This document shows positions 2,649-61,185 of a DNA stretch of 64,000 nucleotides, piece after piece. The translations under genes were made by a program, and so were the position numbers. This DNA comes from Microgenomates bacterium OLB22. GTDB taxonomy: Bacteria; Patescibacteriota; Microgenomatia; UBA1406; HO2-37-13b. The notes beneath the pieces were generated by a model. That model worked only from the letters and a program-made list of their open reading frames with translations. It did no database searches and was not told the DNA's origin. The DNA lies in contig LLEV01000005.1 of NCBI GenBank assembly GCA_001567515.1, forward strand, positions 54,952 through 118,951. The letters run 5' to 3'. Positions within the stretch are counted from its first letter, which is position 1. Each line of letters starts with the position of its first letter.

Positions 2649-4920
2649 TCACTGAGGTGGGATGGCAGTAGGAACTGGTGTTTCCTTTACCTCTTTGAAG
2701 CGCTGTTTTATACCTTCCGTGACTATCAGTAGTGAACGAGGTTGACCATCCTGATTACAGTCCAGACATGACTTAGTCCCAAGAATATCAGTCAGTATGG
2801 TTTTTTCCTGCATCTCTACAGCAGGATTATCAGGCGTCGTCATAGCACCTGTATCTCTGTTGATAGGGACAAACTCTTTGGTCACCACCGCTTGTGTCTC
2901 TTTCCCTTCTAAAACGCCCTTTCTAAAGAACTCAAATCGCGTCTGACAAGTAGAAGGTTGATTTGGGTCAGTTTGCTGACTTGGCAGCAAACACACCTGC
3001 TTCCCAACCACTCCCTCAGGTCTACGAAGCGGCAGGTCAGGCTGATTTGCCAGAAGCGAACGCATAATGCTATTCCATATAGGGGCTGCTCCAGTAACCC
3101 CAGATACCACTCGTGACATTGAAGAGTTATCATTATTTCCCACCCACGTAGCTACTAAAAAAATTTGGGGTATAACCAATAGTCCAGTTATCTCTCAGAT
3201 CATTGGTAGTTCCTGTCTTTACCGACACTGTTTTCTTAGGGACCACCAGCGATGAAGAGCCCCCAAATGCATCTGAGCGGGCCCCATTGTCCTGTAGGAT
3301 ATGTGAGATGATGAAAGCGGTCTCCTTAGAAAGAGCTCTCTTGCCTTGGATCTTGATAGTATCAGGATACTCAAGGGGCACAGTCACATCATCCACAGTA
3401 TTTGGGTCTTTGTACTCGTACAATACTTTACCACTTTTATCCTCAATTTTTCTGATGGCTACCAGAGTCTTAGGAATGCCTTCATTAGCAAAAACCGAAA
3501 AGGCCTGCGCCATTTCTGTCATACGAACCTCACCGCCACCAAGAGTAAGTGATAGTCCGTAACGTGCTGGATCAGTAAACGTAGTAATTGTAAATGCTGA
3601 AGATGAGGCCACGAAATCTTTGACTCCATTTACCGCTAACATCTTTACTGCTGGAATGTTCAGAGAGTTCCCTAGAGAGGAACGTAGCTGTGTCGGGCCG
3701 CGATATTTCCCATCGTAGTTTACTGGACAGTAGGACTTAGGTTGTCCTGATGCTGAAAAACACGTGGGGATATCGTTGAAGATAGTAGCAGCTGTCACAA
3801 GCCCTCTTTCAATCCCCAGAGCATAGTTGAGAGGTTTGATAGAAGAACCTGGCTGACGCAGTGCAGTAGTCACGTTAAAAGTCCCTGACCCTGTCGCAAA
3901 AAAGTCAGCTGAACCCACCATGGCTAGTATCTCCCCCGTAGACGGTCGGGTTACCAAAGCTGCCCCATTGCTAACCTTAAGCCGTCTGAGTGATGTTACT
4001 TCCTTATTTACCGCTGCCTCAGCTGATGCCTGAATAGTTTCATCTAATGTAGTAAATACTTTTAGTCCACCCTTTTCTATAATATCTTTCCCAAATTGCT
4101 TTTCAAGCAGTTCTCGGACATAAAATACGAAGTGAGGCGCTTTGATAGTGTTAGCAGGAGGATGAATCTTCAGCTCTTGTTTCTCTGCAGTAATGCGTTC
4201 TTTCTCAGTAATGTAGCCCAATTCCTCCATGCGTTTTAGTACGGCCTCTTGTCCACGTTTGGCACGCTCAGGGTTGATATGAGGAGAGAAGTAGCTTGGC
4301 CGCTGTGGTAAACGGGCAAGTAAAGCTGCTTCCGCTAGGGTCAGATCTTTAGCATCTTTGTCAAAAAATGTTTTCGCGGCCTCTTGAATTCCGTATGAGA
4401 CACCACCATAGGGCACTTGATTGAGATACAACTCAAGGATCTCATCTTTGGTCATGATCTGCTCAACCCAGAGAGCCAATACGATCTCTTTTATCTTTCG
4501 CTGAATAGTCCTCTCTGGTGTCAGCAACGCTGACTTGATAAGCTGCTGGGTAATTGTCGAACCGCCCTGAGTGCCCTGATGGAGGACAAAGGTATCTTTG
4601 AGTGCTCGTAGCATGCCTCCTACTATAGATATGCCGTTGTGCTTGTAAAAGTCAGCATCTTCTATAGCTATGGTGGCATACTTAACATAGTCTGGGAGAT
4701 CTTTTATATGCACTGGGGTTCTATTTTCCTCATTGAAGATCTCGTACAATAGCTCTCCCTTGCGATCAAGTACTAGTGATGAGATAGGTATTACTTGATA
4801 ATTTTTAAGACCGCGTGGATTCGGGAGACCTCGAAATATGTATATGTATGCGATAGCAATCAACACTACAGCAGAAATACCTAGCAAGAACAATTTCTGT
4901 TGCCTGGGTGTCACAGTCAT
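2649..4920 (-). CDS. class A penicillin-binding protein (PBP1A-type transglycosylase/transpeptidase), reading frame split at an A7 run 3156-3162
   Basis: N-terminal TM anchor; GT51 motifs (EDADFYKHNGIS, GGSTITQQL); transpeptidase SSIKP, SLN, KTGTTND. ORFs 3133..4920 and 2649..3179 join as ...GYTPNFLVATWVGNNDN... if the run is 6 nt, matching the paralog at 12074..14245. Confidence 0.85.
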
Positions 4921-5000
4921 CTGCCAAGCTCCTACCTTCAGTTTTTTTTTTCGAGAATATATGAAACTGTTTGAAGACAGATTTTTTCTTGGTGTCGTTA

Positions 5001-6807
5001 TTACTTGGTTGTTGCTGTGTCATCGCCGTGAGCGTATAAACGATAGGTGGTAGCTCCGATCTTTTGGATCTTATCTACGATAATAGTACCAATTTCGCCG
5101 GTATTTGTCACGTGAGGGCCACCGCAAAGCTCTAAGGAGTAAGCCTCGGAGACATCTGTGGCCGTCCCCCCTATCGCATAGACAGTAACCTCATCAGGAT
5201 ATCTTTCGCGAAAGGATGCCCGTGCCCCCTTTTGGATAGCCTCTTCCTTGGACATTGTATGGGCATATATGGGTATTGACTCGCGAATCTTTGTGTTGAC
5301 GATCTGCACTATCCGCTCAGACAAATCAGTCACAGCAGGTTGATCTACATGAAAATCAAAGCGCAGTCTTTCTTGTGTAATATTAGAGCCTTCTTGTCTT
5401 ACTGACTCCCCCATAAGGTCGTGCAGAGCTTGATGTATGAGGTGCGTAGCGGTATGGTACTTAATCACTTGATCTGACGAGTCCGCGAGACCACCCTTAA
5501 ACATACCGGCAGATGCTGACTTTGCTGATTCACTATGTATATGAACTAACCTCTCAAAATCCTGCTCTATCCCATCAGGGATAGATAAGCCATTATGTCG
5601 TGCTTGTTCTAGTGAAATCTCTAGGGGTATACCATGGCTTTGATATAAGTTAAAGAGAAGATGTGCGGTTACCTCCCTCCCATCTAGCAACGTCTTGGTA
5701 CTATCGAGCAGCTTATTAAACTTGTGCAATTCAGCTTGAATAATATCAGTAGCTAGTACTACATCAATGTCTTCGTATACCGATTTATAGAGCTTTGTAA
5801 AACTCATTATGATAGGGGATGCATCAAAAGAGTCGAGTCGGTACTTTCTCACTGAAAGGGCAGCTCTTCGCAACAATCTGCGGAGCAGATAGCCGTGCTC
5901 TTTGTTGGCAGGAGAGATACCATCCTTAATCAAAAATAGTGAGGCACGTAAATGATCAAGAATGATTCGCGTGTCTACACTGTTTATAGAAGGTAGAAGC
6001 GAAGTAATGCTGGTAGCCGCATCCACAAAAAGTTCCGTTTGAAAAATGTCAGGATTATTGAGCTGGGCTGCCATAATACGCTCAAGCCCTCCTCCAAAAT
6101 CGATACTTTTTTGAGAAAGTTCGTCAAGTCCTCCCGCCTCACTCTTTATGTACTGGATGAACACCGAGTTACCTATCTCCATAAAACGTCCACAGTCACA
6201 GTTGGGGTGGCACTTTATTCCATAAGAAGGGTCATGATCTATTGAAGTAAACTCGTAAAATAACTCAGTGTCAGGCCCTCCTATCTCGCCTACCGGCATC
6301 TGGGAAGGGACCCCTGAACGCGACCACCAATTCTTTTCTACCCCATACCAATGGATATGATCATCAGATAAACCCAAAGTCTTCCATACATCATATGATT
6401 CTTGATCCATAGGCACACTCGCATCTCCTTCAAAGACACTAACATGAAGCCTCTCAGGCGCCAATCCAAATACTTCTGTATAGAGCTCCCACATTGCAGG
6501 GATTTGTTCAGCTTTGAAATGTATCCCTAGTGACCAGTTTCCAAGCATCTCAAAAAAAAGTAGTGTGTCTGTTGTCCCCTACTTCATCGATATCACCAGA
6601 CCGAAAGCACGGTTGTATATCGTATAGATTCCTACCGGATGGATGTTGCTGACTGCTAGATAAATATGGTACTAGTTGCTGCATCCCCGACGAAGTAAAT
6701 AGTGTGGTCGCATCATCCCTCGGTATGAGTGATGCTGGGGATATCTCATTATACCCACGCGCCTCCCAAAATGAGTTGAATGCCTGGCGAATCTTGAGAT
6801 AAGTCAT
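5001..6807 (-). CDS. alaS: alanyl-tRNA synthetase (short form, catalytic+tRNA-binding+editing domains), frame split at an 8-nt homopolymer 6552-6559
   Basis: 85-aa ORF ends ...GDNRHTTFF then TGA; 515-aa ORF begins MLGNWSLG; with a 7-nt run the product reads RHTTFFEMLGNWS, the AlaRS consensus. Editing motifs HLIHQALH and CGGPHV present. Confidence 0.9.
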
Positions 6808-6828
6808 ATAGCAATTTTAGCATACTGA

Positions 6829-6867: not shown

Positions 6868-6891
6868 AGTCCTTCTCTTCTATTCAACAGA

Positions 6892-9800
6892 TTAGTTGGT
6901 AAGTGATGTCCCCAGCCATGTTCGTGAGGCATCAACATCCATAGCATTAGTCTGACCATCAAGGTTCAGATCATACTGATCTAGTTCATAATTACCTGTC
7001 AGAGTCAGAAAATCAATAGAGTTAACTTCACCATCACCGTTGAGGTCTGCTAGTCCTGACTGTTTGGTGACAGTCACACTATCACCTGCCTTTACTAGAT
7101 AGTTGACCTCGTTATCGAGTATGCTAAAGTCTCCACACGGGTATGCTTGGCCAGCAATACTCAGGCTGCAGGCTGCATTCCCCAGAGTTGATCTCGTGAG
7201 ACCCTCAGGAACATTGACAAACACTTTACTATTTCCTGCCGGATCAAAGCTCTGGAATCCGCCATCAAAACACTGGTCAGACCCAGTCTTACACATGCCT
7301 ACAGACAAGCTTACGGCATCAACATCTGCCCCTATAGTCTCAAAGGAGATTATAGCTCCTCCATTTCGGGCTCTTGTCTTTTGGGCATGAGCAGCACTAG
7401 GGCTCATTCCTAGCAAGAATGACGAATCAGCAGTGTCATCAGTCTCATAATCAAGATCGATAGTGACATCTCTATTTGGACTACTGGCAATCTTACCAAA
7501 GAGCTCCGAATTGCCTTTGAGTGATAGTTTGCCCTTTCTACTATTATTGCTAATACCAATTACACGACATCTGTAATGGTCTACCTCACCTTCCTTCTTT
7601 GAGACTATCTTAGTAAAGCCAAAGTCAAGATCACCATCGTCATCAAGATCGATCGTAGCAGTGTCTAGCTCCTTCCTATGATTACCTGCTTCAAAAGCAC
7701 TTCCGACAAAGTACTCACACATGTAGGTTACAGAAGCTGGGTTTCCCTTATTATCCCTCTTCAAGTCCCTGAAATTGCTTACAGAGACAGTACCATCAAC
7801 TCTAAATGTAGTTACTTCTGAGGTAACAACATGTTTTGGCATGGCACAACAAGCTTGGAGACTATTAGTACATCCAGGCAAGTCAACAACCGTACCGCCA
7901 GAGCTCGTACAGTTCTTATTGTTCTGGCAGCTAAAGCTTCTACTCTCCGTTGATCCTGTACAGCTTGTTGGTAGGGTATCAGATTTTGGCTTTGAAGCGC
8001 AACACACTGTTCTGATCGAGCAGCCACCAACTCCAGATAGGCCTACTCCACCGACTTCCTCACAACTATTTGCGGATGAGCAGCCAAGCTCATAATCAGC
8101 TCCTTTGAGAGTCACTGTACCACGACAAGCTCCTGTAGTAGTGTCCTTCTTCTCGGGGACTGAACAGCATACTGTATTTAAGCGACAGCTGCCCAGTGAT
8201 GGAGTACTTGCCCCATTTGCCGCACAGTCACTCCTTGACTGGCAACTGAGATTAAATTTGACTCCTGCAGCCGTAAAGCTTCCAGAACATGTTCCGACTG
8301 GAGTGCCAGATGGACGCGTACCACCAGTAGCTGGCGGTGTCAATTGCACTGGGTCGGGTTGAGCACCCCCAAGACAGCAGAGATTATCGCCTGCGATACT
8401 GCAGTAACTAGGTCCACTCCTAAATGCGCCGCCTTGAGCTGCACATGCTGAGGCATTATTACAATAACACCCCGGACCACCGGACTGCGGTTGCTCAGTC
8501 CTGTCCTTACAACACAACGTCTCATACCCTACTCCTGTCCTTTCATTTTTCGACATACGAGCCGTCTGAGAAAACCCTGGCTTATTTGAACAGTTGCTTC
8601 CGCTGGTGGTCTCACAGGCCTTACTAGGCTTTGGCCATAACACTATCGCGGCCTCTGCTTGTGCACCACTGGAGACGTTTAGATTGCTAGCTGCATTAGC
8701 GCAGACCACATCTAGCTCGTTTGGCTTACCGGGGTCAGCATTTGGCAAGAGCTCTTTATCGAGAAACTCGACGTTATAGATACCCACCGGCAGCTGATGT
8801 AGTCCAAAGTATCCACAACCGACTCTACGATCAGCAGGTATATGGGTATCTCCTGGATTTCTTTCCATCTTGTTGGCATATGTACGTGAACCGATCAGTC
8901 TTGCACCTATACCACATTCACCCTCATATGAACGGATATCAGCAAGAAACTTGCCACTTGAGTCATTTACTCTCTTATTCAGGTTTGTTTTAAGAAAGTT
9001 CGCATCGCAAAGATTACCTGAAGGTCTCTCACCGGCAATGACTACGTAAGTACGGACATTTATAGAGCCACTACCTGACTGCGCTGAGGCAGTCGGTTCG
9101 GTACCACCCCGGCCTGTCGTCTTGATGAGCCTCCATCCATATTTGATATCAGCGCCACAGATGAGCCCTAGATCTTTTATGGTGAGTCCCCCATTGGTAG
9201 CCGTTGTCATAGTACACCCGCCAAATGCCCCACGACCATAATCGCAGAAGAATGATTGCATGCCCTGCGCAAGCGCATACCCAGCAGGTAGTTGCAGAGT
9301 TACATCAGCCCTCGTGTTATGTAGATTTGAGTTAGGCAAGCCTACCGTAGTAACCCGTGCCGCTCCTACCGAAGGAAAGTCTCCATGGTCTGGACCTATG
9401 GCAGTCCTGTTACTCCACTTTGCACCTGATACATTAGTCAACACGTTACCATTTTCGTCTTGAAGCTCAAGAACAGCTTTAAATGAGCACGCAGCAGGAG
9501 CAGTGGCTCTTGGTGTTGGTGAATTATCAACACGAAAAGGCGATGTCGGCACAGGGGTGTTCTGGGTAGTAGGCCTCCCAGGTGGGAGCGTGATAGTACT
9601 ATCTCCGCCACTACCAATGGTAAGTGGTCTTACTACCCACCCATAGTTGATCTTAGCTCCGCATTTGGGAGTAAAGTTTGCAAATGTCTTACTATTTTGA
9701 TTTTTATTCGTTGGGCAAGAAGTAGCTGAACCAGAGTCAGTACAGAATGTTGATGCGACTTCTAGATCACCAGAAAGATTACCCAGCGTCACAGTAGCAA

Positions 9801-10263
9801 AATCTCCTTCAACATATGGTGCTATGGAGGTAAGCTGACGAGTAACTGTCCCTGTTGTAAGGGTCTCGGGGCCAGCTGGTGAACGAGCATCGGTAGCCGT
9901 CACAGCTCTCCCACCATTTTGGCTACTACTTAGAAGTGTCCCATTTTGGCGATCGAGAAATACGGAGATGGTATAGTCATATGAGCAGTTCTCCGCAGCT
10001 CGACCAAAAAACTGCTGAACATTCTTTGATTGCATGACTCCAGCAGCCGACCCAAGAAGCATAAGTCCAATTGAAAGCAGAGTGAGTGTCAGTGCTATTT
10101 CTCCTCTAGTATATTTGCTTGAATGAGGTATTCTTTGGAGCTCTACATTGGGGCCAGCATGAAAAATACTGTTTACACTTTTTTTGATAATCGCAGATAA
10201 ACCTCGCATAAACATTTTTTTGCATGCTTGTTGAATTAAATAGTAATCTGATAACCTTACCAT
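6892..10263 (-). CDS. large (about 1100 aa) secreted/surface cysteine-rich protein with dockerin-like calcium-binding C-terminal repeats
   Basis: N-terminal signal anchor (LTLTLLSIGLMLLGSAAG); repeated Cys-rich modules ending in VCC/LCC/ACC (CRLNTVCCSV, CSIRTVCCAS, CTNSLQACCAM); internal repeat KINYGWVVRPLTIGSGG / DIKYGWRLIKTTGRGG; C-terminus DLNGDGEVNSIDF...DLNLDGQTNAMDVD resembles tandem dockerin-type Ca-binding loops. Confidence 0.6.
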   Translation of the reverse strand: MVRLSDYYLIQQACKKMFMRGLSAIIKKSVNSIFHAGPNVELQRIPHSSKYTRGEIALTLTLLSIGLMLLGSAAGVMQSKNVQQFFGRAAENCSYDYTISVFLDRQNGTLLSSSQNGGRAVTATDARSPAGPETLTTGTVTRQLTSIAPYVEGDFATVTLGNLSGDLEVASTFCTDSGSATSCPTNKNQNSKTFANFTPKCGAKINYGWVVRPLTIGSGGDSTITLPPGRPTTQNTPVPTSPFRVDNSPTPRATAPAACSFKAVLELQDENGNVLTNVSGAKWSNRTAIGPDHGDFPSVGAARVTTVGLPNSNLHNTRADVTLQLPAGYALAQGMQSFFCDYGRGAFGGCTMTTATNGGLTIKDLGLICGADIKYGWRLIKTTGRGGTEPTASAQSGSGSINVRTYVVIAGERPSGNLCDANFLKTNLNKRVNDSSGKFLADIRSYEGECGIGARLIGSRTYANKMERNPGDTHIPADRRVGCGYFGLHQLPVGIYNVEFLDKELLPNADPGKPNELDVVCANAASNLNVSSGAQAEAAIVLWPKPSKACETTSGSNCSNKPGFSQTARMSKNERTGVGYETLCCKDRTEQPQSGGPGCYCNNASACAAQGGAFRSGPSYCSIAGDNLCCLGGAQPDPVQLTPPATGGTRPSGTPVGTCSGSFTAAGVKFNLSCQSRSDCAANGASTPSLGSCRLNTVCCSVPEKKDTTTGACRGTVTLKGADYELGCSSANSCEEVGGVGLSGVGGCSIRTVCCASKPKSDTLPTSCTGSTESRSFSCQNNKNCTSSGGTVVDLPGCTNSLQACCAMPKHVVTSEVTTFRVDGTVSVSNFRDLKRDNKGNPASVTYMCEYFVGSAFEAGNHRKELDTATIDLDDDGDLDFGFTKIVSKKEGEVDHYRCRVIGISNNSRKGKLSLKGNSELFGKIASSPNRDVTIDLDYETDDTADSSFLLGMSPSAAHAQKTRARNGGAIISFETIGADVDAVSLSVGMCKTGSDQCFDGGFQSFDPAGNSKVFVNVPEGLTRSTLGNAACSLSIAGQAYPCGDFSILDNEVNYLVKAGDSVTVTKQSGLADLNGDGEVNSIDFLTLTGNYELDQYDLNLDGQTNAMDVDASRTWLGTSLTN

Positions 10264-14476: not shown

Positions 14477-15325
14477 CTAATGCACATCAGGTAGCTTTAC
14501 CAGTTCAGTCGCTATCACTAGCCTGCGCAGATAAGTACCTGGCGGAGTGCATGTTATAAGATACAAATAAGGACGATCATACTGCTGTTCTAAGACCGAG
14601 ACCTGTGATGGCTCTACTTCAAATTTATCAACCACTTGGTACTCACAGGTGATGTCTCCAATAGTTAGGATGACACGATCGCCACTTGTAAGAGTCGCAA
14701 GATAGGTAAAGATACTGGTATATAACTTATCAGTAGTAAAACGTGCTAAAGCAGGATGAGTTGAGTGTCCGAAGATAGTTACCTTACCATACTCACACGG
14801 TAAGACTCGTGGTTGGAAATGAATAAGTCCCTTTAACAGATCTTCGCCATTTACCTGCACCTTCGCATCATAAATGTCCAACTTGGGGATAGAGATCGTA
14901 TACTCACTAACCGAGAAAGCTCTTTTCGCAGGCGTATCGTCTGCATACACAGTGGGGAACCAGGAAGCTGCCTTGGTATAGTCAGCAAGATTTGTTGTGT
15001 ATACTGTACTTTTTTTGTTAGTAAAACCTTCTACTACCGATGAAGATCCATTGTCTGTTGGGCTTATGATACGAGTATTTAGGATAAAGCGAGCAAATAG
15101 TTCATATTGGATGATAGGAAACAGTGACCAAAACAAGAATAGTGAACCACAGAGTATTGCCACATAAGAAAAATAGGCAACTGGCTTTTTATAACGATGG
15201 TCCTTTTTTTTTGTAGCAGTAAAGAGCCATACATCATTGGATATCAATACTGACAGAAATATTTTGATAAAAAAGTGGCAGAATTGAATTGAGGAAATAT
15301 AGGTTATTATCAAAACGAATGTCAA
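14477..15325 (-). CDS. sortase-family transpeptidase (start uncertain)
   Basis: Catalytic TLxTC motif LYLITCTPPGT and conserved His region IFGHSTH; N-terminal TM; the 5' end overlaps the upstream ORF and contains an in-frame A9 run. Confidence 0.7.
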   Translation of the reverse strand: MTFVLIITYISSIQFCHFFIKIFLSVLISNDVWLFTATKKKDHRYKKPVAYFSYVAILCGSLFLFWSLFPIIQYELFARFILNTRIISPTDNGSSSVVEGFTNKKSTVYTTNLADYTKAASWFPTVYADDTPAKRAFSVSEYTISIPKLDIYDAKVQVNGEDLLKGLIHFQPRVLPCEYGKVTIFGHSTHPALARFTTDKLYTSIFTYLATLTSGDRVILTIGDITCEYQVVDKFEVEPSQVSVLEQQYDRPYLYLITCTPPGTYLRRLVIATELVKLPDVH

Positions 15326-16481: not shown

Positions 16482-16744
16482 ATCATCAATGACAAAGCCA
16501 GCAACTTCTTGTGATGGGACGGACAGCTTCTCTTGATCAGCTTCGATGAACTCCTCACGCCCTGTGCCTGATCCGTCTTCGGGGCGCCGTCGTCTTCAGT
16601 CGATGCATCGGGGGCTGCTGCCACGACTGGGGAAGGAACTGGAGGTATCGAACCAGGAAACAATGTGGATTGGACCAATGCTATAGTTGCCTTTTCAAGC
16701 GATACAGGATCAAAGTGGGATATAGTAGGCTCGCCAGCACACAA
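16478..16744 (-). CDS. hypothetical small Pro/Ala-rich protein (doubtful; could be a mis-framed part of a neighbour)
   Basis: 88-aa low-complexity ORF in a locally GC-rich stretch, coupled by ATGA to the downstream gene. Confidence 0.2.
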   Translation of the reverse strand: MCAGEPTISHFDPVSLEKATIALVQSTLFPGSIPPVPSPVVAAAPDASTEDDGAPKTDQAQGVRSSSKLIKRSCPSHHKKLLALSLMI

Positions 16745-17367
16745 CCCCAGAATCCAATAATCCCTGATCGAACAAAGTCTACAACCCCTTCTTTAGTACT
16801 GGGAGTGTAAATGACGACCGTCTCTGAGATCGGATTTTTTTCATGAATCTTATGCAATAGCTCTATGACATCGGCACTTGGATCAAGACTTGACTCCTTC
16901 GTTTGTGAATCTATGATATGACCTGCTTTGACCAACCGAACAGTCATACTTGTCGAACATTCAACTAAGAGGTAGTCCTCCTCTGTTACTATTGTCTTGA
17001 TCACATCCAAACTATCTACAAAGCCAATAGCCTTTAGATCGAGCTCGTCAAATAGCTTTTTAAAGACTGCTTTTGAATCATTTGAGAGTACGCCTGTAGT
17101 TGGATCCATAAACATACCAGGGACTATCAATAAGGTATCTTTAGCCTTCTTTTGCACTTTAGTCTCAAGTTGATAGAGCAACTCATCAACTTCCTCAACA
17201 TAATGAGTAAAGTCTGTAAGCTCGATGGTATGGTCACTGATTGCACTAAGACTCTGAGCAGCCTCATCTTTAGCAACAAGTAGGCCCGTCAGAGAAGATT
17301 GAAAAATAAACAGAACGAAGACCATATCAACAGATGATGCCTTTGTTTCAGATAGTTCTTTTATCAT
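16681..17367 (-). CDS. hypothetical protein with C-terminal TM helix
   Basis: 228-aa ORF, no recognisable motif; C-terminal IIGFWGCVLASLLYPTLILY. Confidence 0.35.
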   Translation of the reverse strand: MIKELSETKASSVDMVFVLFIFQSSLTGLLVAKDEAAQSLSAISDHTIELTDFTHYVEEVDELLYQLETKVQKKAKDTLLIVPGMFMDPTTGVLSNDSKAVFKKLFDELDLKAIGFVDSLDVIKTIVTEEDYLLVECSTSMTVRLVKAGHIIDSQTKESSLDPSADVIELLHKIHEKNPISETVVIYTPSTKEGVVDFVRSGIIGFWGCVLASLLYPTLILYRLKRQL

Positions 17368-18817: not shown

Positions 18818-18915
18818 AGCCGGGGGGAGGAGATGAGGCTATTGGTTGGGGCAATTCCTCATGCATATTTTCATCAGACATATCTATAATAATAGCATTA
18901 AGAAATGCTATCACA

Positions 18916-20332
18916 ATGAAAAGAGGACACTTTTACTTTTTTGCTAAACACACAATCCTTTCGCTATGTGTAGCTTTCTTGCTTTGTGCACTTACTGCAG
19001 GTATTGTTTTTGGGGCACTCTATTATGCTGCCAAAGTCACATACAAAGATCGCGTCCTCCCCTATACCTATGTAAATAGTTTGAATGTATCTGGGAAGAC
19101 ACCTGGTCAAGTTGAAGAGCTACTTACCAAAGCAACTTAATGAATTGCAGAAAAAAGAGTACCGCTTCGTATACAACGATGTAGAAGAAAAGATAATAGC
19201 CGGAGAAGATCTTTTCTTTTCTTATAACTTCGATGGGATACGACCTATCCTCACGAGAGAGAATAAATCCCTCCTGAGCAATCTATACGCAATTTTTTAT
19301 CCACGTAGTGCTTCATGAGCCAACAATAATTACCATTAAGCCCACGTATCAACCTTCGACCATAGCAGAGTATTTAGATGATCTAGATAAGAGGTATGGG
19401 AAAGAAGCAAAGGATGCTAAGTTTCAACTAGAAGGGAGAAAGGTTGTTGCTTTTCAGATTGAAGAGCAGGGGAATAAAGTAGATAGAGAAAAAACAATTG
19501 CTGATTTTGAGCGCAGCCTAGGGTCTGAGGCTAGCACTCCAACGATATCAGTGTCGAGCATATTTCAACTACCGCTAGTTCAAATCAAGGATATCAACAC
19601 CTATGGCATAGTCGAGAAAGTGGCAGAAGGTGTCTCAGATTACAGTGGATCTTCAAATGAAAGAGTACACAACCTGTTACTCGCAGCAAAGCAGTTACAT
19701 GGTGTACTGATTCCAAAGGGGGAGATATTTTCCTATAACAAGGCAGTAGGCGATATCTCTGTAAAAGACCGGATATAAACAAGCATATATTATTCAAGAC
19801 GGCAAAACTGTCTTGGGTGACGGAGGTGGGATCTGTCAGACATCTACTACCATGTTCAGAGCTGCATTAAATGCAGGCCTGCCGATCATAGAGCGACATG
19901 CTCATTCATATAGAGTACGATATTATGAAAATGACCAAAAACCTGGACTAGACGCTACTGTATTTGCTCCCCGTGTTGATTTTCGTTTTAAAAATGATAC
20001 GCCAGCAGCTTTACTTATACAGATGCATGTTGATAAGGAGAAAAGGAAGCTAACTTTTTTCTCTTTATGGTACCCGTGACGGACGAGTCACTACTATTAG
20101 TCCTATCAGGGTATCTGGGTATCGTCCAGCTCCTGAGCCCCAGTATATAGATGATCCAACACTTCCAAGAGGCACACAAAAACAAGTTGATTGGGCAGCC
20201 ACTGGGGCCACATCAAGGTTTGACTACCTCGTAAAGAGAGACGGAGAGATCTTGCAAGAGAAGACATTTGTATCCAACTACAGACCATGGCAAGCTAAAT
20301 TCCTCGTGGGAACAAGAGACTAGACTATTTAT
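18916..20332 (+). CDS. VanW/YoaR-family protein, fragmented into at least 5 frames
   Basis: GDGGGICQTSTTMFRAALNAGL and FKNDT are VanW hallmarks; pieces 18916-19140, 19085-19318, 19308-19778, 19813-20079, 20064-20332 rejoin by single-base changes at T6 19293-19298, A4 19763-19766, T6 20055-20060 and one site in 19085-19140. Confidence 0.7.
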
Positions 20333-20405
20333 TACTATTCTGCCTTTCCTTACCTGACTCGCTTTCTTTACCTATCTTGCTATTCGCTTGTCTAGCTTAA
20401 AGCCA

Positions 20406-20855: not shown

Positions 20856-20870
20856 AGTTGATATGAACAG

Positions 20871-21290: not shown

Positions 21291-21300
21291 GGTAATAATA

Positions 21301-21785
21301 TTAGGCAGCTAATTTCTTTGTTTTTTTAGACTTAGACTTGCTTTCAGGTTGCTTTCCTTCCTTACCTTTTGTTGGTACTGGGTCATCCCCTTTGGGAGTA
21401 ACTCTTTTCTTGGTTGGGAAAGGTGGCACTTCTTTACCCCAGGTGACAACGACCATATTGGCAGAATCACCCATACGGATAGGAAGTCTCTGAAGAGTGG
21501 TAAATCCTGAAATTTGATCAGAATATGCTTCCGAGACGACTGACGTAAGGTATTGTATCACATCATTATGAGGAATATGACGTAAAAGGACGTTGTGATC
21601 AGCTTGGGTATGTGTTTTTGCCTTACCCACAAGACGATCTATTAAGCTCCTGACATAACGGGATTTGGTCTTTGTGGTGACTAAAACGACCCCTTCGTAT
21701 GAAGTTATAAATCAACTTCTTCATCGTAGCATCTTTAGCATCCTGCCCCTTACGGATAACGACTTTTTTTTATCCCCTTTTTCAT
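21301..21785 (-). CDS. rplQ: 50S ribosomal protein L17, 5' region disrupted
   Basis: C-terminal 2/3 (…RYVRSLIDRLVGKAKT…GFTTLQRLPIRMGDSANMVVVTW) is clear L17. ATG at 21785 overlaps the rpoA stop (ATGA). Reaching the L17 frame needs one extra base in the 8-T run 21764-21771; that frame still carries two in-frame TGA within 12 nt. Confidence 0.75.
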
Positions 21786-22712
21786 GCTTCCTTAAATCCA
21801 ACACCTAACTTGTGTAATTCAGCCTCAATGAGGTCTAGTGATTTACGCCCTACACCCTTCAGATCAACAAGTGTTTCTTTGCCTTGCTCAATAAGATCTC
21901 CTACTGTTTCAATGCCTTCTCGAAGGAGGGCGTTAATTACTCTGGTAGGAAGATCTAGTTCATCAATAATGGTTTCATAGACTTTTTTCGTCTATTTTCA
22001 CACTCCCGGTGATACCACCAGCTGCATCATCCTCTGAAAGGAGAGCACCATTAAACATATGAGAATAGAACTGTGCAAGGATAGCCGCTGACTGTTCCAA
22101 GGCGTCTTTTGGAGATACCGAACCATTAGTCCAGATCTCAAGAATTAATTTATCAAAATTAGAAACACGTCCTACACGAGCTGGTTCAACTCTAAATGTC
22201 ACCTTAGTAACAGGGCTAAAGATAGAATCAACAGCAATCATGCCATGCTCTTTCTTCTCTTTATCTTCTGATGAAGAGAAACCCAACCCTTTTTCGACTA
22301 TGAAGGTCAAATCAAGACTACCCTTAGCATCTGTGATCTCAGCGATATGATGATCTAAATTTACGACCTCAAGACCTGTTGCCTTGATATCTTTACCAGT
22401 CACACTCTTTGCTCCCTTAAGCGAGACTGATACCTCAAGTGGTTCTTTTGAATTGAGGACAAATTGAAGTTCCTTTAGATTCATGATCACCTCTAGCGCA
22501 GTCTCTTTTATTCCTTTCAGAGGACTGAAGACGTGAGGTACCCCGTTCATCTTAACATAGGTCACAGCAGCACCTTCTATAGACGAAAGAAGCACGCGGC
22601 GAAGAGCATTACCGAGACTGTGAGCATATCCATAGGGAAGTGGGCTCAATTCGAAAACACCATAGGTAGATGTATCGGTAACTTGTTTTGTAGTAAAGCT
22701 TGGTTTTAGCAT
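21782..22712 (-). CDS. rpoA: DNA-directed RNA polymerase alpha subunit, frame split between NTD and CTD at a T6 run 21983-21988
   Basis: 245-aa NTD ORF ends IDEKSL*; the next frame encodes the alpha-CTD ETIIDELDLPTRVINALLREGIETVGDLIEQGKETLVDLKGVGRKSLDLIEAEL; one base fewer gives continuous ...KIDEKVYETIIDEL... Confidence 0.9.
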
Positions 22713-23373: not shown

Positions 23374-23759
23374 TTAACCTCTTTTTGGCTTTGGTGGACG
23401 AACTCCATTATGTGGGATGGGAGTAATATCGATAATCTGATTGATCCCGAGTCCAGAAGCTCTGATTGCACGAAGTGATGCATCTCTCCCGGGGCCGATA
23501 CCTCTCATATAGATGCTGACAGCCGAAAGCGCATGGTCATCCATAGCTTTTTGTAGCGCATTTTGCACCGTTACAGTGGCGGCATAAGGAGTAGATTTTC
23601 GAGTACCTGAAAATCCATTTTGGCCACATGATCCAATCAAAAAGGGTGTGCCCTGTTGATCAGTCAAGGTTACAATTGTGTTGTTAAAGGTCGCATTAAT
23701 GTAAATACGGCCTGTAGTTACTGTCTTTTTCTCCTTTTGTGTCTTTTTTTAATAGCCAT
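23374..23759 (-). CDS. rpsK: 30S ribosomal protein S11, N-terminus out of frame at a T7 run 23744-23750
   Basis: 97-aa ORF lacks the first ~30 residues; from the upstream ATG at 23759, MAIKKKTQKEKKTVTTGRIYINATFNNTIVTLTDQQG is recovered only if the run is 8 nt (one base missing). Confidence 0.85.
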
Positions 23760-24183: not shown

Positions 24184-24298
24184 TTATCCTTGTCTTTGTT
24201 TGTGCTTAGGATTTTTACACATCACAAAAATAGCTCCGCGCCTTTTAACAATGATGCACTCAGCACACATTTTTTTTATCCGATGCTCGAACTTTCAT
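24184..24298 (-). CDS. rpmJ: 50S ribosomal protein L36, frameshifted at an 8-T run 24270-24277
   Basis: With a 7-nt run the minus strand encodes [37 protein letters not shown] (zinc-ribbon L36); absent from the ORF track (short and split). Confidence 0.8.
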
Positions 24299-25309: not shown

Positions 25310-25314
25310 AGATA

Positions 25315-27780: not shown

Positions 27781-27804
27781 AGTTCTATAAATTAGACAAT
27801 TTTA

Positions 27805-28270
27805 CTAGCTTCTATTTTTTTCCTTTAACTTCTGTAGTGCCTTTACCACAGCATAGGTGTTTGTTGTCTTATTACGCGTACCTATGATCTTGCCTGAAGC
27901 GTTAGATACTCCAGCCACTGTCAGCACAGATCTCAGAACACTTCCCACTTTCAATCCCGCGCCCTCTGGAGCTGGCTTGAGGATGAGTCGTGCTGATTTG
28001 TATTTTATCTTAATTTCATGTGAAAGTGTGGTCCCGTGACGCTCTATTGTAAATAATTTTTTTACGTGCCTGAGCTATAGATTTTTGTATAGCTTTGGGG
28101 ACTTCTTTTGCTCGTCCAAGTCCAATTCCTAGCTTTCCATTATGATCACCTACAACTACTAGGGCTGTAAAACTGATGGCGCTACCACCGGTAGTCTTTT
28201 TGGAAACTCTTCGGATGAGTAATACTTTCTCATCTAAATCTTTTTTTTCTGCTTCAATAAATTCTGCCAT
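27805..28270 (-). CDS. rpsE: 30S ribosomal protein S5, frameshifted at a T7 run 28057-28063
   Basis: ORF 28016..28354 has only the N-terminal half; with a 6-nt run the frame continues ...ILKPAPEGAGLKVGSVLRSVLTVAGVSNASGKIIGTRNKTTNTYAVVKALQKLK, the canonical S5 C-terminus, ending at TAG 27805-27807. Confidence 0.9.
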
Positions 28271-35052: not shown

Positions 35053-35124
35053 GATCTTTTCGTATATTATTATTCTTCTGAAGTTGAATCTTGCACCTCT
35101 TCAACTACCTGCTCAGCAACTGGC

Positions 35125-35841
35125 TCAGCATCTTGCTCGATCACCGCAGCAGGAGCATCTTGACGCTTGTGAGCTTGCTTTTTTTGACGAACGTATCAAA
35201 ATGACGCCTTGCTGTGGCCCTGGGATAAGTCCCTTGACAAGAACTTCGTCTTCGGTGAGACCAACAATTCGTAGATGCTTGATAGTCACAGTCTCCACAC
35301 CCATATTACCAGCCATCTTCTTCCCCTTATATACTCTACCAGGAGTTGCGGATTGGCCAATAGAACCAGGGGCACGGAGCCTATCTGACTGGCCATGTGT
35401 CTTCGGACCTCCAGCGAAGCCATGTCTTTTTACCACACCCTGAAATCCTTTACCTTTTGAAGTCGCCTGGACATCTACTAACTGCCCTTTATAAAAAAGC
35501 GTTGATGGGACCAGTCTTGCACCTATCACTAGATCGACATCACCAAGATGAAGCGATTTCCCATCTTCAGATACTTCAAAAGAGTCAATTCTGATCTCTC
35601 GGATATGACGAAGCGGCTCTTTTACATTGTAGCTCTTGAGCTGACCCTGCTGGGTCTTTCGGATCCTCTTCGCCTCATCATATGCGACTATCAAGGCATT
35701 ATACCCATCTTTCTGTGCAATTCGATAGCCAAGGAGGATACAATCATGTGCCTTTACCGAAGTTACAGGCATACGAATACCGTCCTCGTCTATATATTGT
35801 TCTGTCTTATTTTTATATCCAATTATTGTTTGCATGTTCAA
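35125..35841 (-). CDS. rplC: 50S ribosomal protein L3 (C-terminal 20 aa possibly mis-framed at a T7 run 35178-35184)
   Basis: L3 core through ...GVILIRSSKK; annotated tail ASSQASRCSCCGDRARC is odd; a 6-nt run would give an acidic tail ending at 35079. Confidence 0.85.
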   Translation of the reverse strand: MNMQTIIGYKNKTEQYIDEDGIRMPVTSVKAHDCILLGYRIAQKDGYNALIVAYDEAKRIRKTQQGQLKSYNVKEPLRHIREIRIDSFEVSEDGKSLHLGDVDLVIGARLVPSTLFYKGQLVDVQATSKGKGFQGVVKRHGFAGGPKTHGQSDRLRAPGSIGQSATPGRVYKGKKMAGNMGVETVTIKHLRIVGLTEDEVLVKGLIPGPQQGVILIRSSKKASSQASRCSCCGDRARC

Positions 35842-35948
35842 AAAAAAAAGATCCCGATAGAGATCAGTACTGATCTTACACGTCTGTATTTTGCATCGGT
35901 GATTATAAAGAGAAATGACTGTTAAGTCAATCCCGCTTCATAATAGAC

Positions 35949-39877: not shown

Positions 39878-40942
39878 TCATGATGATTTTTGAGCGGTCT
39901 GTGATATAGTCTGGAGTATCCATATAAATAGTCCTAGCAATATAAATACAGAGAAGAATGCAAGTAGCTTTTCTCCAGTGGTCTCTAGAAAGAGGAGACT
40001 TGAGCCAAACAAAAGAGAAACGAAGAGATAGAAAAGAGATATTCGTCTTCTTCCCCATCCCGCAGCTAGGAGGCGATGATGAAAATGCCCCGCGTCTCCT
40101 TGAAGAGGGGACTTTCCGGAGAAAACCCTTCGAGTCATAACATAACATGCATCTGTAATAGGGATAGCAAGTACTACACCAAGCGTCCCTACTTTAGTAT
40201 ATGAGAGTAAGGACAAGAACCCCAGCAGATAACCCGCCAAAGTACCCCCAGCATAACCGGGCATTATCTTCTGAGGATAAAAACTCCAAAAGAAAAAGCC
40301 TGCGAATATACCTGAACACAGATACGCAAAACGAGCAACATGCACAACTGAGACTTCATAAGCACCCACTCGATGGGCAAAGTACCCCATAAAAGAAAAA
40401 TGCAACAGCGACAAATCCTGATAACTGTCCATCCAGACCTGAACTCCAACTCACGAAGTTCATGAGTGAAAGTATCCATATAATGGCGACTATATCGGCA
40501 AGTACCAATATGTTCTTCCCCCAGATATCTAACGTAAAGAGTGGTGAATCGAGACGAATTACCCCTCCAAAGGGATTAGATATGTATGGGATACCGAGTC
40601 CCGACATCACAACCGTTGATACTATAACTGCTGTAATAATAAGTCGAAGTAGGGGTTTTAGATCATATCGGTCATCCAACAATCCCAGTCCTACTATCCC
40701 ACCCGCACCTAGGAGGATTGAAAACAATTGCTTATCAACAGGAAAACGCAACAATACATAACCCATGAGGATACCCATATAAATTGCAAGACCCCCAGCA
40801 CGAGATACTATCCCCCGATGGGTAGTTGCTGGATGAAAAACGCTTATCTGGATCGTCTACCAAACCGACTCGAGGGGAAAGAGCAATTGCTAGTGGAGTG
40901 GTGATGTTAATAAGAAAAAAATGCTGTGATGAACTCTATCAT
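39878..40942 (-). CDS. polyprenyl-phosphate HexNAc-1-phosphate transferase (WecA/TagO/MraY superfamily, WecA-like), fragmented by about 3 frameshifts
   Basis: N-terminus ...SPRVGLVDDPDKR then FHPATTHRGIVSRAGGLAI (WecA DxPxxRKxH...PxxGG); LGLLDD, NFVSWSSGLDG (NxxNxxDGxDG), WSFYPQKIMPGYAGGTLAG. Pieces rejoin at A7 40915-40921, A5 40836-40840 and a site in 40385-40400. Confidence 0.7.
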
Positions 40943-41319: not shown

Positions 41320-41325
41320 AGTTTA

Positions 41326-42639: not shown

Positions 42640-42678
42640 ATCCTATTATGCAATAGTTTTTTGTTTAGTTTTGTATAG

Positions 42679-44005: not shown

Positions 44006-44195
44006 GGATGAATTACTTTACTCGTGCTTGAGCTCTCTCGTGCTTGCTCAATTTTGCTTTCTTAGGCTTCTTTTGTTCTTTACGATCTCTGTTTTCTCCT
44101 TTTGCCATAATATAAGTATATCAAAAAATGCGAGGCTAGTAGTACTATACCTCGCGAGTTACATCAACCTTATTATTCGTGATAATTCCAGGCTG

Positions 44196-44483
44196 ATGCA
44201 AGAGAATGCCAGTAATTGTCAGCTGTCCCGCCCTACTCTATGTGCAAGCTATATTGAACAAGCTCTTATGGGAGAAAATCCAGATTTTAATGATATTAAG
44301 GAGAAACTACGTAAGTCAATGCATGCTATGCAATTTTTTTTTGATGAAAAAAAACTATCACACCCAGAAGAAGATTTCGATGCATGCATGAAGATTGATT
44401 CGTATGACTTCGTCCTTCGAGCACAATCCTACAAACAGAATTTGTTAGAGCTTGTAAAACGTGGTGTCCCGACAAAGCATTAA
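44196..44483 (+). CDS. hypothetical small protein
   Basis: about 95 aa from MQENASNC...; the upstream part of the 165-aa ORF is probably non-coding. Confidence 0.25.
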   Translation: MQENASNCQLSRPTLCASYIEQALMGENPDFNDIKEKLRKSMHAMQFFFDEKKLSHPEEDFDACMKIDSYDFVLRAQSYKQNLLELVKRGVPTKH

Positions 44484-44490: not shown

Positions 44491-45499
44491 CTACGAGGTA
44501 GTTTTACTTACTAAGTCGTATTCCAGATTTTCTTTTATGATCCGTATACCATTTAGGTTCTGCATCTTATGATAGTAGGGGAGCATAAATAGACTTTTAA
44601 GAATACTATTTCTACGAAGTCTCTGGGGGAAATCGCGTGACATGGATTCTCCCGAGTATCCAGCCATTAGCCATTCAAGTGGCAGCTGTTTTCGATACAT
44701 GAAATGCCAATGAGTAAAGTCAGCAACTGGGTCCCCACCACTTGCTCCCTCGAAATCAATAAGCCCCGTTAGTTCATCTTTCTCATCCACAAAAAATGTG
44801 GTCAGGGCCGAGGTCGTTATGAAGAAGTCGAGGGGTATCTGTGTACTCATGCGTACGTTCCCTAGCAACAGTCAGGGATTCTTCAAGTAATCTCACATCA
44901 ATTTCATACTCCTTAGCTAGATCGTATAACTGCTCATTTTCTATGATAGGGTTTATAGCATCCCACTCTGTTTCATACTCTGCCCTGCCTTCGCCATCGA
45001 TTCTCCCAAAACCATGAGTCTGAATGCCATGCATAATAGCCAGGATTTCCCCCGTCTTTCTTAAGATAGATTGAAGCCTCCTGTCTGAGATTCCTTCAGA
45101 TTGCTGAATGTCTCGAATTGATCTGCCTGCTAGTTTTGTTTGAACACTAGCCCAGGATGGACTATCTGCTCCTTCGAGCGCAGCAATATAAATGACATTT
45201 GGAACAGGTATTCCAGCCTTTTCACACTGCGTCATAGCCCATTGCTCCCTTTCAAATCGCCTTCTGTCTTTGCGACTAATACGCAAGATGACTTTATGCG
45301 CACTCGTTAGTTCAACTTCATATACTTCGTTGCTTTCTCCTTTTACTATGCGCTCCTTTCTGACTAAATCAGAACCTGTTGCCAGCTTTATCAGAGGAAT
45401 CAAAATTTCATCTGGAGTATTGAAGCCCAGATGAAGACCATCTAAATAAGCCTTATGTTGTGCAGCATGATCATTGTGTGAAGAATCTGAGGAAGACAT
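44491..45499 (-). CDS. aminoglycoside/choline-kinase-type phosphotransferase (APH family), frameshifted at an A6 run 44791-44796
   Basis: 238-aa ORF ends LLHNDLGPDHIFCG*; the next frame continues FFVDEKDELTGLIDFEGASGGDP (Brenner HxDLxxxN and DFE motifs); one base fewer gives ...GPDHIFVDEKDELTGLIDFEG... Confidence 0.7.
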
Positions 45500-45501: not shown

Positions 45502-46964
45502 CTATTTCACTTTTGCTGTGACTTTGTATTCGATCTTCTTACCTAGAAGCAACCTGACATGTGTATCGAGTGCGGGCAGGGATGAGAAAAGGAAGGAGAT
45601 AATGGGCAAAAAATACCACTGTATAAATAGTAACGGGACCTTGGAGATATCAGTCTTGATGTTGACATAGTTGCGCAGTCGAAAATCGAAGTAGAGGATG
45701 AGGAAGAGAAGTAGGGTAGTCATCGTCAAAAGAGCTGATGAAAGTCGGGGTAATAGGTAACCGAGCACTGTCCTCTCAAATGTTGGGTGAACTAGGGTCG
45801 GGATCCAACCGCTGATAGTAAGTAGGAAAAAGGATGTCGGCCAAAGGATATGTGTCTCAGAAATATAGGACAATTTCTTTATCCGTTCGATGAGCGGAAC
45901 ATGCGTAGCGATGAGCGACTGCCGAAGAGCATAGGAGATGTCCGAGCTCCCCACGCCCACCTTTTTTCTTGCTGATAGCGAATCTGGAGGGCTTTCATGA
46001 GTTTTGGAGCATAAACACCATCACGTACAATTGGGAGATAGATAGGGATTGTCTGAACTTCTGCCCCAAGAGTATAGAATGCTTGTAGATGGATATGCCA
46101 GTCCTCTGGGATGATGTCGGTATCCCAATATCCGATCCGGTGCAACATATCAATCGAACAAGAATACGTGGAAATCTGTATGAACTTGCGCTCCTGTGGG
46201 AGAAGTGATAGTCGCAAAACAGAAGAGATGATAGTCTGTAGCCTGACGGGAAGGGCCAAAGCCCAAAAATGGTTGTACAGCAGCACAGGCGCCGCAAAAA
46301 AATGGAAATCGCGCTTAGCATCCTTGAGATATTTATAGGTGAGGCACGAGTAGTATGAGTGATGGAGCTGACTATCGGTATCCATCACAGTGACCACCAC
46401 TTTCTTAGGATCCAGGCCCTTCTTCTGTACATACTCATAGAGTTCTTTTGCTGCGAAGGCTGCGTTACTTGCCTTCCCGACTACTTCTCCAGGTAACAAG
46501 GGATGATATGTATCGATGATATCTTTAAAAACTCCTCGGTATTTTTTCTTTATAAAGTCCGCACGAGCTTTTGCTGTCTCCTCAAAACGCTTTTCTAGAG
46601 CAAGCAGAACTATAGTCTGCTTTACAGGAAATGTCTGGTTTTGAAGACACTCTACTGTGCGGTCCACTATCTCTACAGGCTCGATAGCATTTGTGATTAG
46701 TGCCACATGGATGACATCGGAGTAATCCATCTCACTCTCCTCTAGAGTACCTTGCCAATCAAGGTTGACTGAACGTTCAAATATTGCAAAAGAGATCCAG
46801 GCATAATAGATCGTCCGGATTGATTTGTACGAAAAGTAGACTATATATGCCAAGACCAAGTATGCAACTATGGCTGGATGAAAAGGGGGGAAAGCCATAT
46901 AGGTAGGGTGATTAGTGTTATGGAAGCCACTGGGACAAAGCGTTCTGAAAGCCAGATAAACCAC
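45502..46964 (-). CDS. processive family-2 glycosyltransferase (cellulose/chitin/hyaluronan-synthase-like), C-terminal TM region out of frame
   Basis: QQEKRWAWG (QxxRW) motif and DTD (VMDTDSQ); ORFs 45879..46964 and 45502..45960 overlap and must be joined by a frameshift within 45879-45960. Confidence 0.65.
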
Positions 46965-46994: not shown

Positions 46995-47343
46995 CTAGAT
47001 TGTATCATGGCGGGATTTATCTGAACGAGAGAGATGCACTACATAATAAATACAGATAAAGAGCGCTACGCCTGATATAAATCCCACGAGATTGATAAAT
47101 GAAAAGGAAAGCAGCCCAATCAAGATACTAATACTAGCTACTGCAACAAGTGAAAGCCTCCCTATAAATGCTACATGAAGAGAAGAGCCAATTATCGTTA
47201 GCAATAAAGTTGCAAGCAGCTTTGTCATAGTCACAGGCTCAAAGTAGGAGAATAGGACTCCAAGAAAAAAAAAGGATATGCTCATCATCAAGAATGGTAG
47301 GATCTTTTTGCCCTTTCTCATCATTTTCTTTACAATATAGTAC
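46995..47343 (-). CDS. hypothetical membrane protein
   Basis: Hydrophobic ORF; annotated 5' end overlaps the divergent gene, so start probably near MYYIVKK. Confidence 0.25.
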
Positions 47344-50845: not shown

Positions 50846-51262
50846 TTAGAACTTTTTTTCAATACGGGCGCCGTATTTAGATCGAGAAGTCTTACGATTT
50901 TCGACCCCTGTAGTATCAAATGATCCCCGGACGATATGATACTTCACGCCTGGTAGATCTTTTACTCGTCCTCCTCGTACCAGAACTACAGAGTGTTCTG
51001 CTAGCTGGTGACCAATACCTGGAATGTAGGCTGTTATCTCCATACCATTTGAGAGTTTCACACGGGCTACCTTACGTAGAGCAGAGTTAGGCTTACGTGG
51101 GGTCATAGTACGGACTACAGTACATACCCCCCTCTTCAGAGGGCTAGGATTAAGTACACGTTTACGCTTAATGCTGTTAAAAGCATACTTCAGCGCAACA
51201 GCTTTACTCCTTCGTTCCTTTGGAGTACGTGATTTTTTTATAAGTTGATTAATAGTTGGCAT
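50846..51262 (-). CDS. rpsL: 30S ribosomal protein S12
   Basis: [10 protein letters not shown]...[16 protein letters not shown]. Confidence 0.95.
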
Positions 51263-58448: not shown

Positions 58449-58465
58449 TAGGCCCAAAAGAATAA

Positions 58466-59249: not shown

Positions 59250-59322
59250 ATTGTATATTAGGTATACTATTTACTTTGTGCATTTGCAATAATATCTTGT
59301 GTAGAAAAAATCTGAAAATTCA

Positions 59323-60357: not shown

Positions 60358-60509
60358 ATTCTTTATAATCCTCCTTGTGATCATCCCGTACTCATACATC
60401 TTATATAACCTCGTCATATGGAAAGATGATAAGAGAAATGAGCTTGGATGATTTTGGTAGTATAAATTTCACCAATTGCGCTTTTGATTTCCCAAGAGTA
60501 CATTAATTA

Positions 60510-61185
60510 ATGATGGCAGAGACCAAACAATTGTCCAAAACTCAAAAGATGCTCAATGTTTGGGCTGTAGTACTCATTCTATGGAGTCTCTATCGCACTG
60601 CTAACATCGCCATGCCGCTCTGGTTTGATGAATTTATTGCCAAGCCAGCAGTATTCATCCTGCCAGTGTTATGGTTCATCCATAGATATGAAGGTGCCAC
60701 TATCTGGGATGGCCTATGGCTATCAAGAAAGAATATCCGATCATCTCTCTATTACGCACTCGCAATAGGTGCTTTTTTTCGCTGTCATGGCGGTCATCGG
60801 AAACATCACGAAGTATGGCCACTTCTCTACGGATGCCACGCTATTTTCACTCTCATCGTCCACCTTGGCGATGACCATTGCCATCACTGTTGCTACAGCA
60901 ATCTCCGAGGAGATTCTATCTCGCGGCTTTGTCATAAAACGCCTCTATGAAGATTCAAAGTCGGTGTATGGGAGTGCATTCCTCGGTAGCGTACTCTTTC
61001 TCATACTCCATGTCCCTATACTTTTCGGAGACTATAAGCTATCCGGGCCATCCATCATTTTACTGCTATCTACAAATTTTATACTTAGTTTCATCAACTC
61101 CATCGTGTTTATAGATAGAAAGAGCCTCATAGCCCCCATCCTCATACATGCATTCTACAACATAGCGATCCTTCTCTATACCTAA
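60510..61185 (+). CDS. CPBP-family (CAAX/Abi) intramembrane metalloprotease, frameshifted at a T7 run 60773-60779
   Basis: Second ORF carries EEILSRGF (EExxxR), FLILH and HAFYN motifs; one base fewer joins ...YYALAIGAFFAVMAVIGN... Confidence 0.7.

Follow-up and report, generated by a model that had tools for sequence, protein, structure and literature searches.

The 64,000 nucleotides of contig LLEV01000005.1 of Microgenomates bacterium OLB22 analysed here (the window; coordinates count from its first letter) contain at least 26 one-base frameshifts in genes, among them rpoA, alaS and several genes for ribosomal proteins. These gene breaks are almost certainly single-base sequencing errors in a metagenome assembly built from Ion Torrent reads only, and reflect neither gene damage nor recoding. 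This conclusion is carried directly by the identity of the window, by the sequencing platform, by in-frame run lengths at the two breaks that could be compared with DNA of the same strain and by the dependence of the errors on run length. We infer the same cause for the remaining 24 breaks. An earlier note, made from the sequence of the window, had counted at least 20 single-base breaks including essential genes, a count that is exceeded here. It had favoured homopolymer-biased read errors as the likeliest cause, which is supported by the PGM source of the data, by the same-strain run lengths and by the intact genes of a related species.

Thirteen intact window proteins, including EF-Tu, EF-G, S7, S12, SOD, L2, S3, L16, S10 and L22, are letter-identical to NCBI proteins of OLB22 within KXK09041–KXK09108, and the SecY of the window is KXK09060, encoded on a contig of 208,458 bp. 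Compared by SecY, the closest GTDB species representatives reach 63–69% identity at most; the nearest all belong to the Patescibacteria/Microgenomates and are mostly labelled Roizmanbacteria. A second genome, 'Microgenomates bacterium OLB23', is found among the protein matches as well. The window has a GC content of 43%. Its gene content includes the S10-spc-alpha cluster for ribosomal proteins, tuf, fusA, rpsL/G, rpoB/C and alaS, and also two class A penicillin-binding proteins (PBPs) as well as envelope and glycan genes.

Speth et al. 2016 (PMC4821891) reported 23 draft genomes from the partial-nitritation/anammox reactor at Olburgen, two of which are Microgenomates/OP11, namely OP11-1 (LLEV00000000) and OP11-2 (LMZU00000000). 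Each of the two OP11 bins amounts to ~0.9 Mb and ~0.1–0.2% of the reads. All DNA in that study was read on the IonTorrent PGM, using the 400-bp kit, and CLC served for assembly; the PGM reads belong to BioProject PRJNA274364. The authors explained the need for correction by "persistent frameshifts, common in IonTorrent data" and used a frameshift-correction script together with manual curation. From the reading of OLB as Olburgen, from the OP11 in the OLB22 locus tags (of the form UZ21_OP11001000136) and from the 23 genomes with OP11-1 listed 22nd, we infer that OLB22 originates from this study. Protein identity with OLB22 and the PGM-only design of the study thereby trace the window to a flow-based platform, as expected for a sequencing artefact. 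The kind of artefact is already acknowledged by the authors of the genome and holds no biological novelty.

DNA of the same strain was available as three short contigs in the Logan assembly of an unrelated run, SRR28716338, which were found through exact matches to the S10, L18 and S4 proteins of the window. Their overlap with the window is 4,194 bp and contains three indels and two substitutions in total. All three indels are homopolymer lengths, and the longer run is always found in the window. In the 1,280-bp contig L068, the sole difference is the rpsE run at 28057..28063 (minus strand), with A7 in the window against A6 in the contig, where S5 is intact with 154 amino acids. The sole difference in the 1,675-bp contig L069 is the rpoA run at 21983..21988 (minus strand), with A6 in the window and A5 in the contig, and the frame continues into the alpha C-terminal domain. 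These two contigs, 2.96 kb together, otherwise match the window exactly. In the third contig, L067 (1,236 bp, 99.76% identity), both substitutions are found along with a single indel: the intergenic run upstream of rplC at 35840..35849 is T10 in the window and T9 in the contig. This is the one further length difference detected outside genes. A different and in-frame run length is thus found at both breaks, out of the 26, that same-strain DNA covers. Exact-protein look-ups with EF-Tu, SecY, infA and rpsM of the window returned no contigs, and therefore rpsK and rpmJ have no same-strain check. A chimeric query of corrected segments from nine genes (alaS, PBP1A, rplQ, rpsK, rpsL, SBP, APH, CPBP and rpmJ; SBP denotes the solute-binding protein) matched no same-strain protein; it was swamped by AlaRS and PBP homologues and yielded the reference proteins P0145–P0147.

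A wider comparison is offered by a related species with ~80% DNA identity and 90–97% protein identity, which was located through 90% clusters of the window proteins. It is represented by the contigs L062 (JGI 3300081872, 14.4 kb, corresponding to 17.6–32.1 kb of the window), L064 and L065 (Logan SRR32910803) and L066 (JGI). Frameshifts were detected with a purpose-written protein-versus-DNA aligner that allows frameshifts, run with the proteins of the related species. Genes are uninterrupted at every break covered by these four contigs and by the proteins P0145–P0147 and P0265. Against the related species, frame changes are seen in rpsE, in rpoA, twice in rplQ, four times in the VanW-like gene, at the N-terminus of the SBP, in rpsK, in rpmJ, at the C-terminus of rpsL and twice in a 501-residue GT2 glycosyltransferase. 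On both sides of the breaks in the ribosomal protein genes and rpoA, amino acid identity to the related species remains at 90–97% and there are no in-frame stops. The rpoA (35 proteins) and rpsE (41 proteins) products of more distant Patescibacteria are likewise uninterrupted, and they align to the window split across two frames. Every single-base edit results in one open reading frame (ORF) with a contiguous full-length Pfam match, including the WecA-like, APH and CPBP genes. A second chimeric query returned one match only, P0265, and no WecA, APH or CPBP homologue; for these three genes the evidence therefore consists of Pfam continuity, with consecutive profile positions in adjacent fragments, and of motif reading. 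Frameshift calls against distant relatives at 23801–23813, 25153–25329, 32912–32988 and 35038–35193 were dropped, as alignment to the close relative revealed them as artefacts of gene boundaries or low complexity. Neither a tRNA gene nor an Rfam family at the gathering threshold occurs anywhere in the 64 kb, so no RNA element accounts for any break.

The breaks are strongly associated with homopolymers. A run of at least 4 bases lies in 25 of the 26 break intervals, against 6.5 expected, and a run of at least 6 bases in 16 of the 26, against 1.06 expected; among 20,000 random interval sets, none was as high in either measure. For A/T runs, the fraction with an error rises from 0.4% at length 4 through 1.1% at length 5, 5.3% at length 6, 15% at length 7 and 23% at length 8 to 33% at length 9 or more. 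The corresponding fractions for G/C runs are 2% at length 4 and 25% at length 6. All these rates are minimum values, since an error in a non-coding run stays invisible. The per-run error rate of G/C runs is at least equal to that of A/T runs, and seven breaks lie in G/C runs. The association with runs that the earlier note had described holds; most breaks lie in A/T runs as it had stated, with G/C runs hit too. Errors in both directions, also stated there, are seen with an uneven balance of 19 extra bases versus 7 missing bases. The two directions differ in their bases: A/T runs take 17 of the 19 extra bases and G/C runs take 5 of the 7 missing ones (Fisher p = 0.006). Runs as short as 4 nt are affected as had been stated, with A4 in the VanW-like gene at 19763..19766 and T4 in rplQ at 21683–21686 as examples. 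One-base indels in runs of all four bases, with a frequency that rises with homopolymer length, are the pattern expected of an artefact.

The errors would arise as follows. On the PGM, a single analogue signal gives the homopolymer length, and accuracy drops as the run lengthens. At modest coverage, runs would then enter the assembler consensus with one base too many or too few, and gene prediction would meet a frameshift. The actual genes of the organism would be intact, and many errors would have survived the script and the hand curation of the authors in a metagenome-assembled genome of low abundance. For the PGM, Bragg et al. 2013 (PMC3623719) showed that calling accuracy falls with homopolymer length, to ~68% for 6-mers. 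They also found that bases are inserted where no run exists, and that among recurrent, high-frequency indels, insertions of A/T and deletions of C/G are the commonest. Such run-less over-calls fit rpmJ, where the extra base probably lies beside the run, and the first break of the VanW-like gene, whose interval contains no run.

Among the genes of the translation apparatus, all on the minus strand, alaS is broken at 6552..6559, where the gene strand has T8 and T7 gives RHTTFFEMLGNWSLG; the one extra base is supported by Pfam profile continuity and by the relatives P0146 and P0147. rplQ is broken twice by comparison with L062, at 21764..21771 (gene-strand A8, should be A7) and at 21683..21686 (gene-strand T4, should be T3). 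In rpsK, the run at 23744..23750 is A7 and should be A8, and the missing base parts the ATG from the gene body (L062). rpmJ has one extra base within 24270..24279 (L062). Its A8 run has the same length in the relative; the window reads GGAT-A8 and the relative GGT-A8, so that the extra base is probably 24279, adjoining the run. Corrected rpmJ reaches 70.2 bits with V at residue 7 and 64.1 bits with D. The C-terminus of rpsL, at 50853..50859, has A7 versus A6 in the relative, and the protein ends in EKKF and a stop instead of EKSSK and a stop. The ORF is unbroken, and from this alignment the run probably holds one extra base. The breaks in rplQ, rpsK and rpmJ and all four in the VanW-like gene were confirmed against L062 at 90–95% amino acid identity.

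The corrected alanyl-tRNA synthetase (5001–6807, minus) has 601 amino acids and its relatives P0146 and P0147 have 601–603; it is apparently a short form that ends at the second additional domain and is normal for the lineage. In the ribosomal cluster, rpsS (S19; 29612–29893, minus) is located between rpsN and rpsH, not between rplB and rplV. The order rpsN-rpsS-rpsH is common to all 22 rpsS-bearing members of the Roizmanbacteria-like loci (L002–L020, L023, L035, L038, L039, L059 and L060, compared with L021–L061), and the canonical order L2-S19-L22 is found in the remaining Microgenomates loci and in the Acidobacteria and Clostridium outgroups. Judged by gene order, rpsS seems to have moved in this clade specifically, within an S10-spc cluster that is very stable otherwise. 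The gap between rpsE and rplO (27780–27805) contains no rpmD (L30). Absence of L30 has been reported for candidate phyla radiation bacteria, and the window agrees with it.

In the envelope, glycan and other genes, PBP1A (minus strand) is broken at 3157..3163, where the gene strand has T7 and T6 gives the conserved GYTPNFLVATWVGNND; the protein P0145 (88% identical) reads uninterrupted across this site, and the Pfam profile continues between the PBP1A fragments. A second extra base near the N-terminus lies at 4942..4951, with A10 on the gene strand, and A9 joins the ATG to the main frame; the true start of PBP1A is the ATG at 5023. A hypothetical gene at 17365–15237 (minus) has two breaks, as P0265, a hypothetical protein of 713 amino acids, covers three ORFs of the window. 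One base is missing at 16745..16748, most simply in a G4 run, and another at 16581..16587, in or beside a C4 run, where the placement is approximate in this low-complexity segment. At the N-terminus of the SBP (18822..18827, minus), the gene strand has C6, and C5 joins MSDENMHEELPQP... to the main ORF, as seen with L062; one base is extra. The VanW-like gene on the plus strand has one extra base at each of four places: at 19115..19132, which contains no run of 4 or more and is the only one of the 26 breaks not placed on a run; at 19293..19298 (T6, should be T5); at 19763..19766 (A4, should be A3); and at 20055..20060, in or just before a T6 run. In the WecA-like gene (minus), the run at 40915..40921 is T7 and should be T8, with one base missing, the run at 40836..40840 is T5 and should be T4, giving DDPDKRFHPATTHRG, and one extra base lies at 40385..40400 in one of three adjacent runs (T5, T4 and G4). 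APH has T6 at 44791..44796 (minus), which should be T5 and then gives HNDLGPDHIFVDEKDEL. The Rce1-like CPBP gene has T7 at 60773..60779 (plus), which should be T6.

Two glycosyltransferases of the GT2 family on the minus strand complete the catalogue. In the 501-residue protein, by comparison with L064, the C6 run at 46885..46890 is most simply one base short and detaches the first 41 codons, and at 45946..45952 a G4 run or a run of two bases lacks one base. The other GT2, near 63.9 kb at the right-hand edge of the window, has one extra base at 63892..63901, in a C5 or A5 run that immediately precedes YILLLNSDV, and lacks one base in the G4 run at 63929..63932, after NVGFG. All nine runs that the earlier note had named are present, with the coordinates given for PBP1A off by one base. 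The breaks it had described in rpsE, rpoA, alaS, PBP1A, rplQ (T8), rpsK (one base short), the VanW-like gene (four), the WecA-like gene (three), APH and CPBP were recovered by the comparisons and edits described above. The rpmJ break is real as well, and it is its assignment to the A8 run that changes. The processive GT2 contains two breaks where one had been noted. Additional to the earlier list are the second break in rplQ, the second in PBP1A, both in the hypothetical gene, the SBP N-terminus, the end of rpsL, both in the GT2 at the edge and the second in the 501-residue GT2.

Some further features of the window are recorded here. Homopolymers at 42142–42152 (11 bases) and at 15204–15212, 44334–44342 and 47265–47273 (9 bases each) are located at gene starts or in poorly conserved genes. 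They are four of the six longest homopolymers of the window; the other two have 10 bases each, and because both of these are wrong or differ from the same strain, the lengths of the four are suspect. Within 40987–42642 (minus), the ORFs 42187–42642, 41329–42183 and 40987–41322 share one frame with single stop codons between them and have no Pfam match; they are either separate genes or one gene with in-frame stops. The ORF 43986–44483 (plus) matches only the C-terminal ~104 residues of a 229-residue protein of the related species that resembles 2-phosphosulfolactate phosphatase (L064, 9248–9937), and its N-terminal portion is apparently absent or overlaps with the CAP-domain gene. The ORF 6892–10263 (minus; 1,123 amino acids), with a weak dockerin type I match near the C-terminus as its sole Pfam match, may encode a large surface protein.

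Several points weigh against attributing all breaks to sequencing error. Same-strain DNA, from a run (SRR28716338) that may be of any sequencing platform, checks only 2 of the 26 breaks, and the evidence for the others comes from the related species, family profiles and analogy. The connection of OLB22 to the Olburgen study is indirect, and the name 'OLB22' is absent from the text of PMC4821891. In addition, the breaks are clustered, with 9 of 26 within 3.2 kb at 18.8–22.0 kb (18822–21988: SBP, VanW-like four times, rplQ twice and rpoA). Uneven coverage, with a low read depth at this place in the original assembly, may be the reason, or else heterogeneity among strains. Finally, under-calls dominate long homopolymers in the reads of Bragg et al. 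(PMC3623719), whereas the OLB22 consensus mostly over-calls long A/T runs, which may reflect later base-callers, the assembler or the correction script of the authors.

There is a slim chance that a minority of the 24 breaks without a same-strain check are real length-variable tracts in the living population, and these would likeliest be found in the VanW-like, WecA-like and GT2 genes. Such tracts, with replication slippage as the switch or polymerase slippage as the rescue, would be the first for Patescibacteria. It is very improbable that the tracts in the VanW-like, WecA-like, GT2 and CPBP genes are phase-variable contingency loci of which the 'off' length was assembled. Phase variation typically affects surface and glycosyltransferase genes. 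These genes have several breaks each (VanW-like four, WecA-like three, GT2 two), and the same-strain DNA covers none of their sites. One switch per gene would suffice, however, where three or four are found, and several of the breaks lie in runs of only 4–5 bases or outside runs, where replication slippage would be inefficient. The adjoining housekeeping genes rplQ and rpoA, in the same 3-kb stretch, are broken alike, with rpoA shown to be an error, and the related species is in frame at the covered VanW and GT2 sites with intact genes.

We consider it equally improbable that the frameshifts are real and that the proteins are rescued by slippage of RNA polymerase on homopolymers, as at poly(A) in Buchnera and Blochmannia, an alternative that the earlier note had raised and that the evidence now contradicts. 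Most breaks do lie in A/T runs and genomes of Patescibacteria are small. The frequency of slippage also rises with run length (PMC5574713), so that the dose-response by itself is not decisive. Slippage presupposes a frameshift in accurate DNA, yet same-strain DNA is in frame at both covered sites, rpsE and rpoA, and the related species has none of the frameshifts. In measured transcriptomes, run insertions were all in A or T runs (PMC5574713), but seven of the breaks lie in G/C runs. Rescue of 19 of the 26 breaks would need a deletion in the RNA, and deletions are rarely tied to homopolymers (PMC5574713). Instead of the long A or T tracts expected for slippage, 24 of the 26 sites have runs of at most 8 bases and 8 of the 26 a run of 4 or none, in a genome of 43% GC that is not an AT-rich, decaying endosymbiont.

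Least credible of all is the view that the broken genes are true pseudogenes of a decaying genome or of a non-viable population variant. Many genes are affected and symbiotic Patescibacteria do lose genes, but joint loss of rpoA, rpsE, rpsK, rpmJ, rplQ and alaS is impossible. The flanks are fully conserved apart from the one-base shifts, with 90–97% amino acid identity to the relative around the breaks in rpoA and the ribosomal protein genes and no in-frame stops, and pseudogenes should persist in the strain, where rpsE and rpoA are intact elsewhere. Programmed ribosomal frameshifting is excluded, as no relative shares any break (neither the related species nor the 35–41 uninterrupted rpoA and rpsE proteins of distant Patescibacteria), and an alternative genetic code was set aside, as the defects are frame changes and not in-frame stops and the code was checked in PMC4821891.

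With sequencing error as the cause, the deposited OLB22 genome carries about one frameshift error per 2.5 kb, and its protein set splits or truncates many genes. Such errors can mislead pseudogene counts, completeness estimates, pangenome and gene-loss studies of Patescibacteria and scans for recoding. The catalogue of 26 sites with single-base corrections is usable to repair the region. Beyond that, the error rate as a function of run length, combined with comparison to same-strain contigs, represents a test for like artefacts elsewhere.

The slippage reported for Buchnera and Blochmannia (Tamas et al. 2008, cited in PMC5574713) shares with OLB22 the frameshifts in needed genes, the A/T homopolymers and the small genome. 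It differs in that those frameshifts are confirmed in DNA and lie in long poly(A) of very AT-rich genomes, whereas OLB22 has many short or G/C runs, its two testable breaks vanish in independent DNA and most of its breaks would need an RNA deletion. Assemblies from 454 or early Nanopore reads alone had the same outcome, with split ORFs in essential genes that were gone after short-read polishing. In contrast to these cases, the platform of OLB22 is the PGM according to the source paper, and nothing points to long reads. The closest likeness is to the PGM errors described by Bragg et al. (PMC3623719). Different from those read errors, the errors in OLB22 are the residue after a correction script and manual curation; in common with them, they are one-base indels that rise with run length, with extra bases mainly in A/T, missing bases mainly in G/C and an occasional extra base where there is no run.

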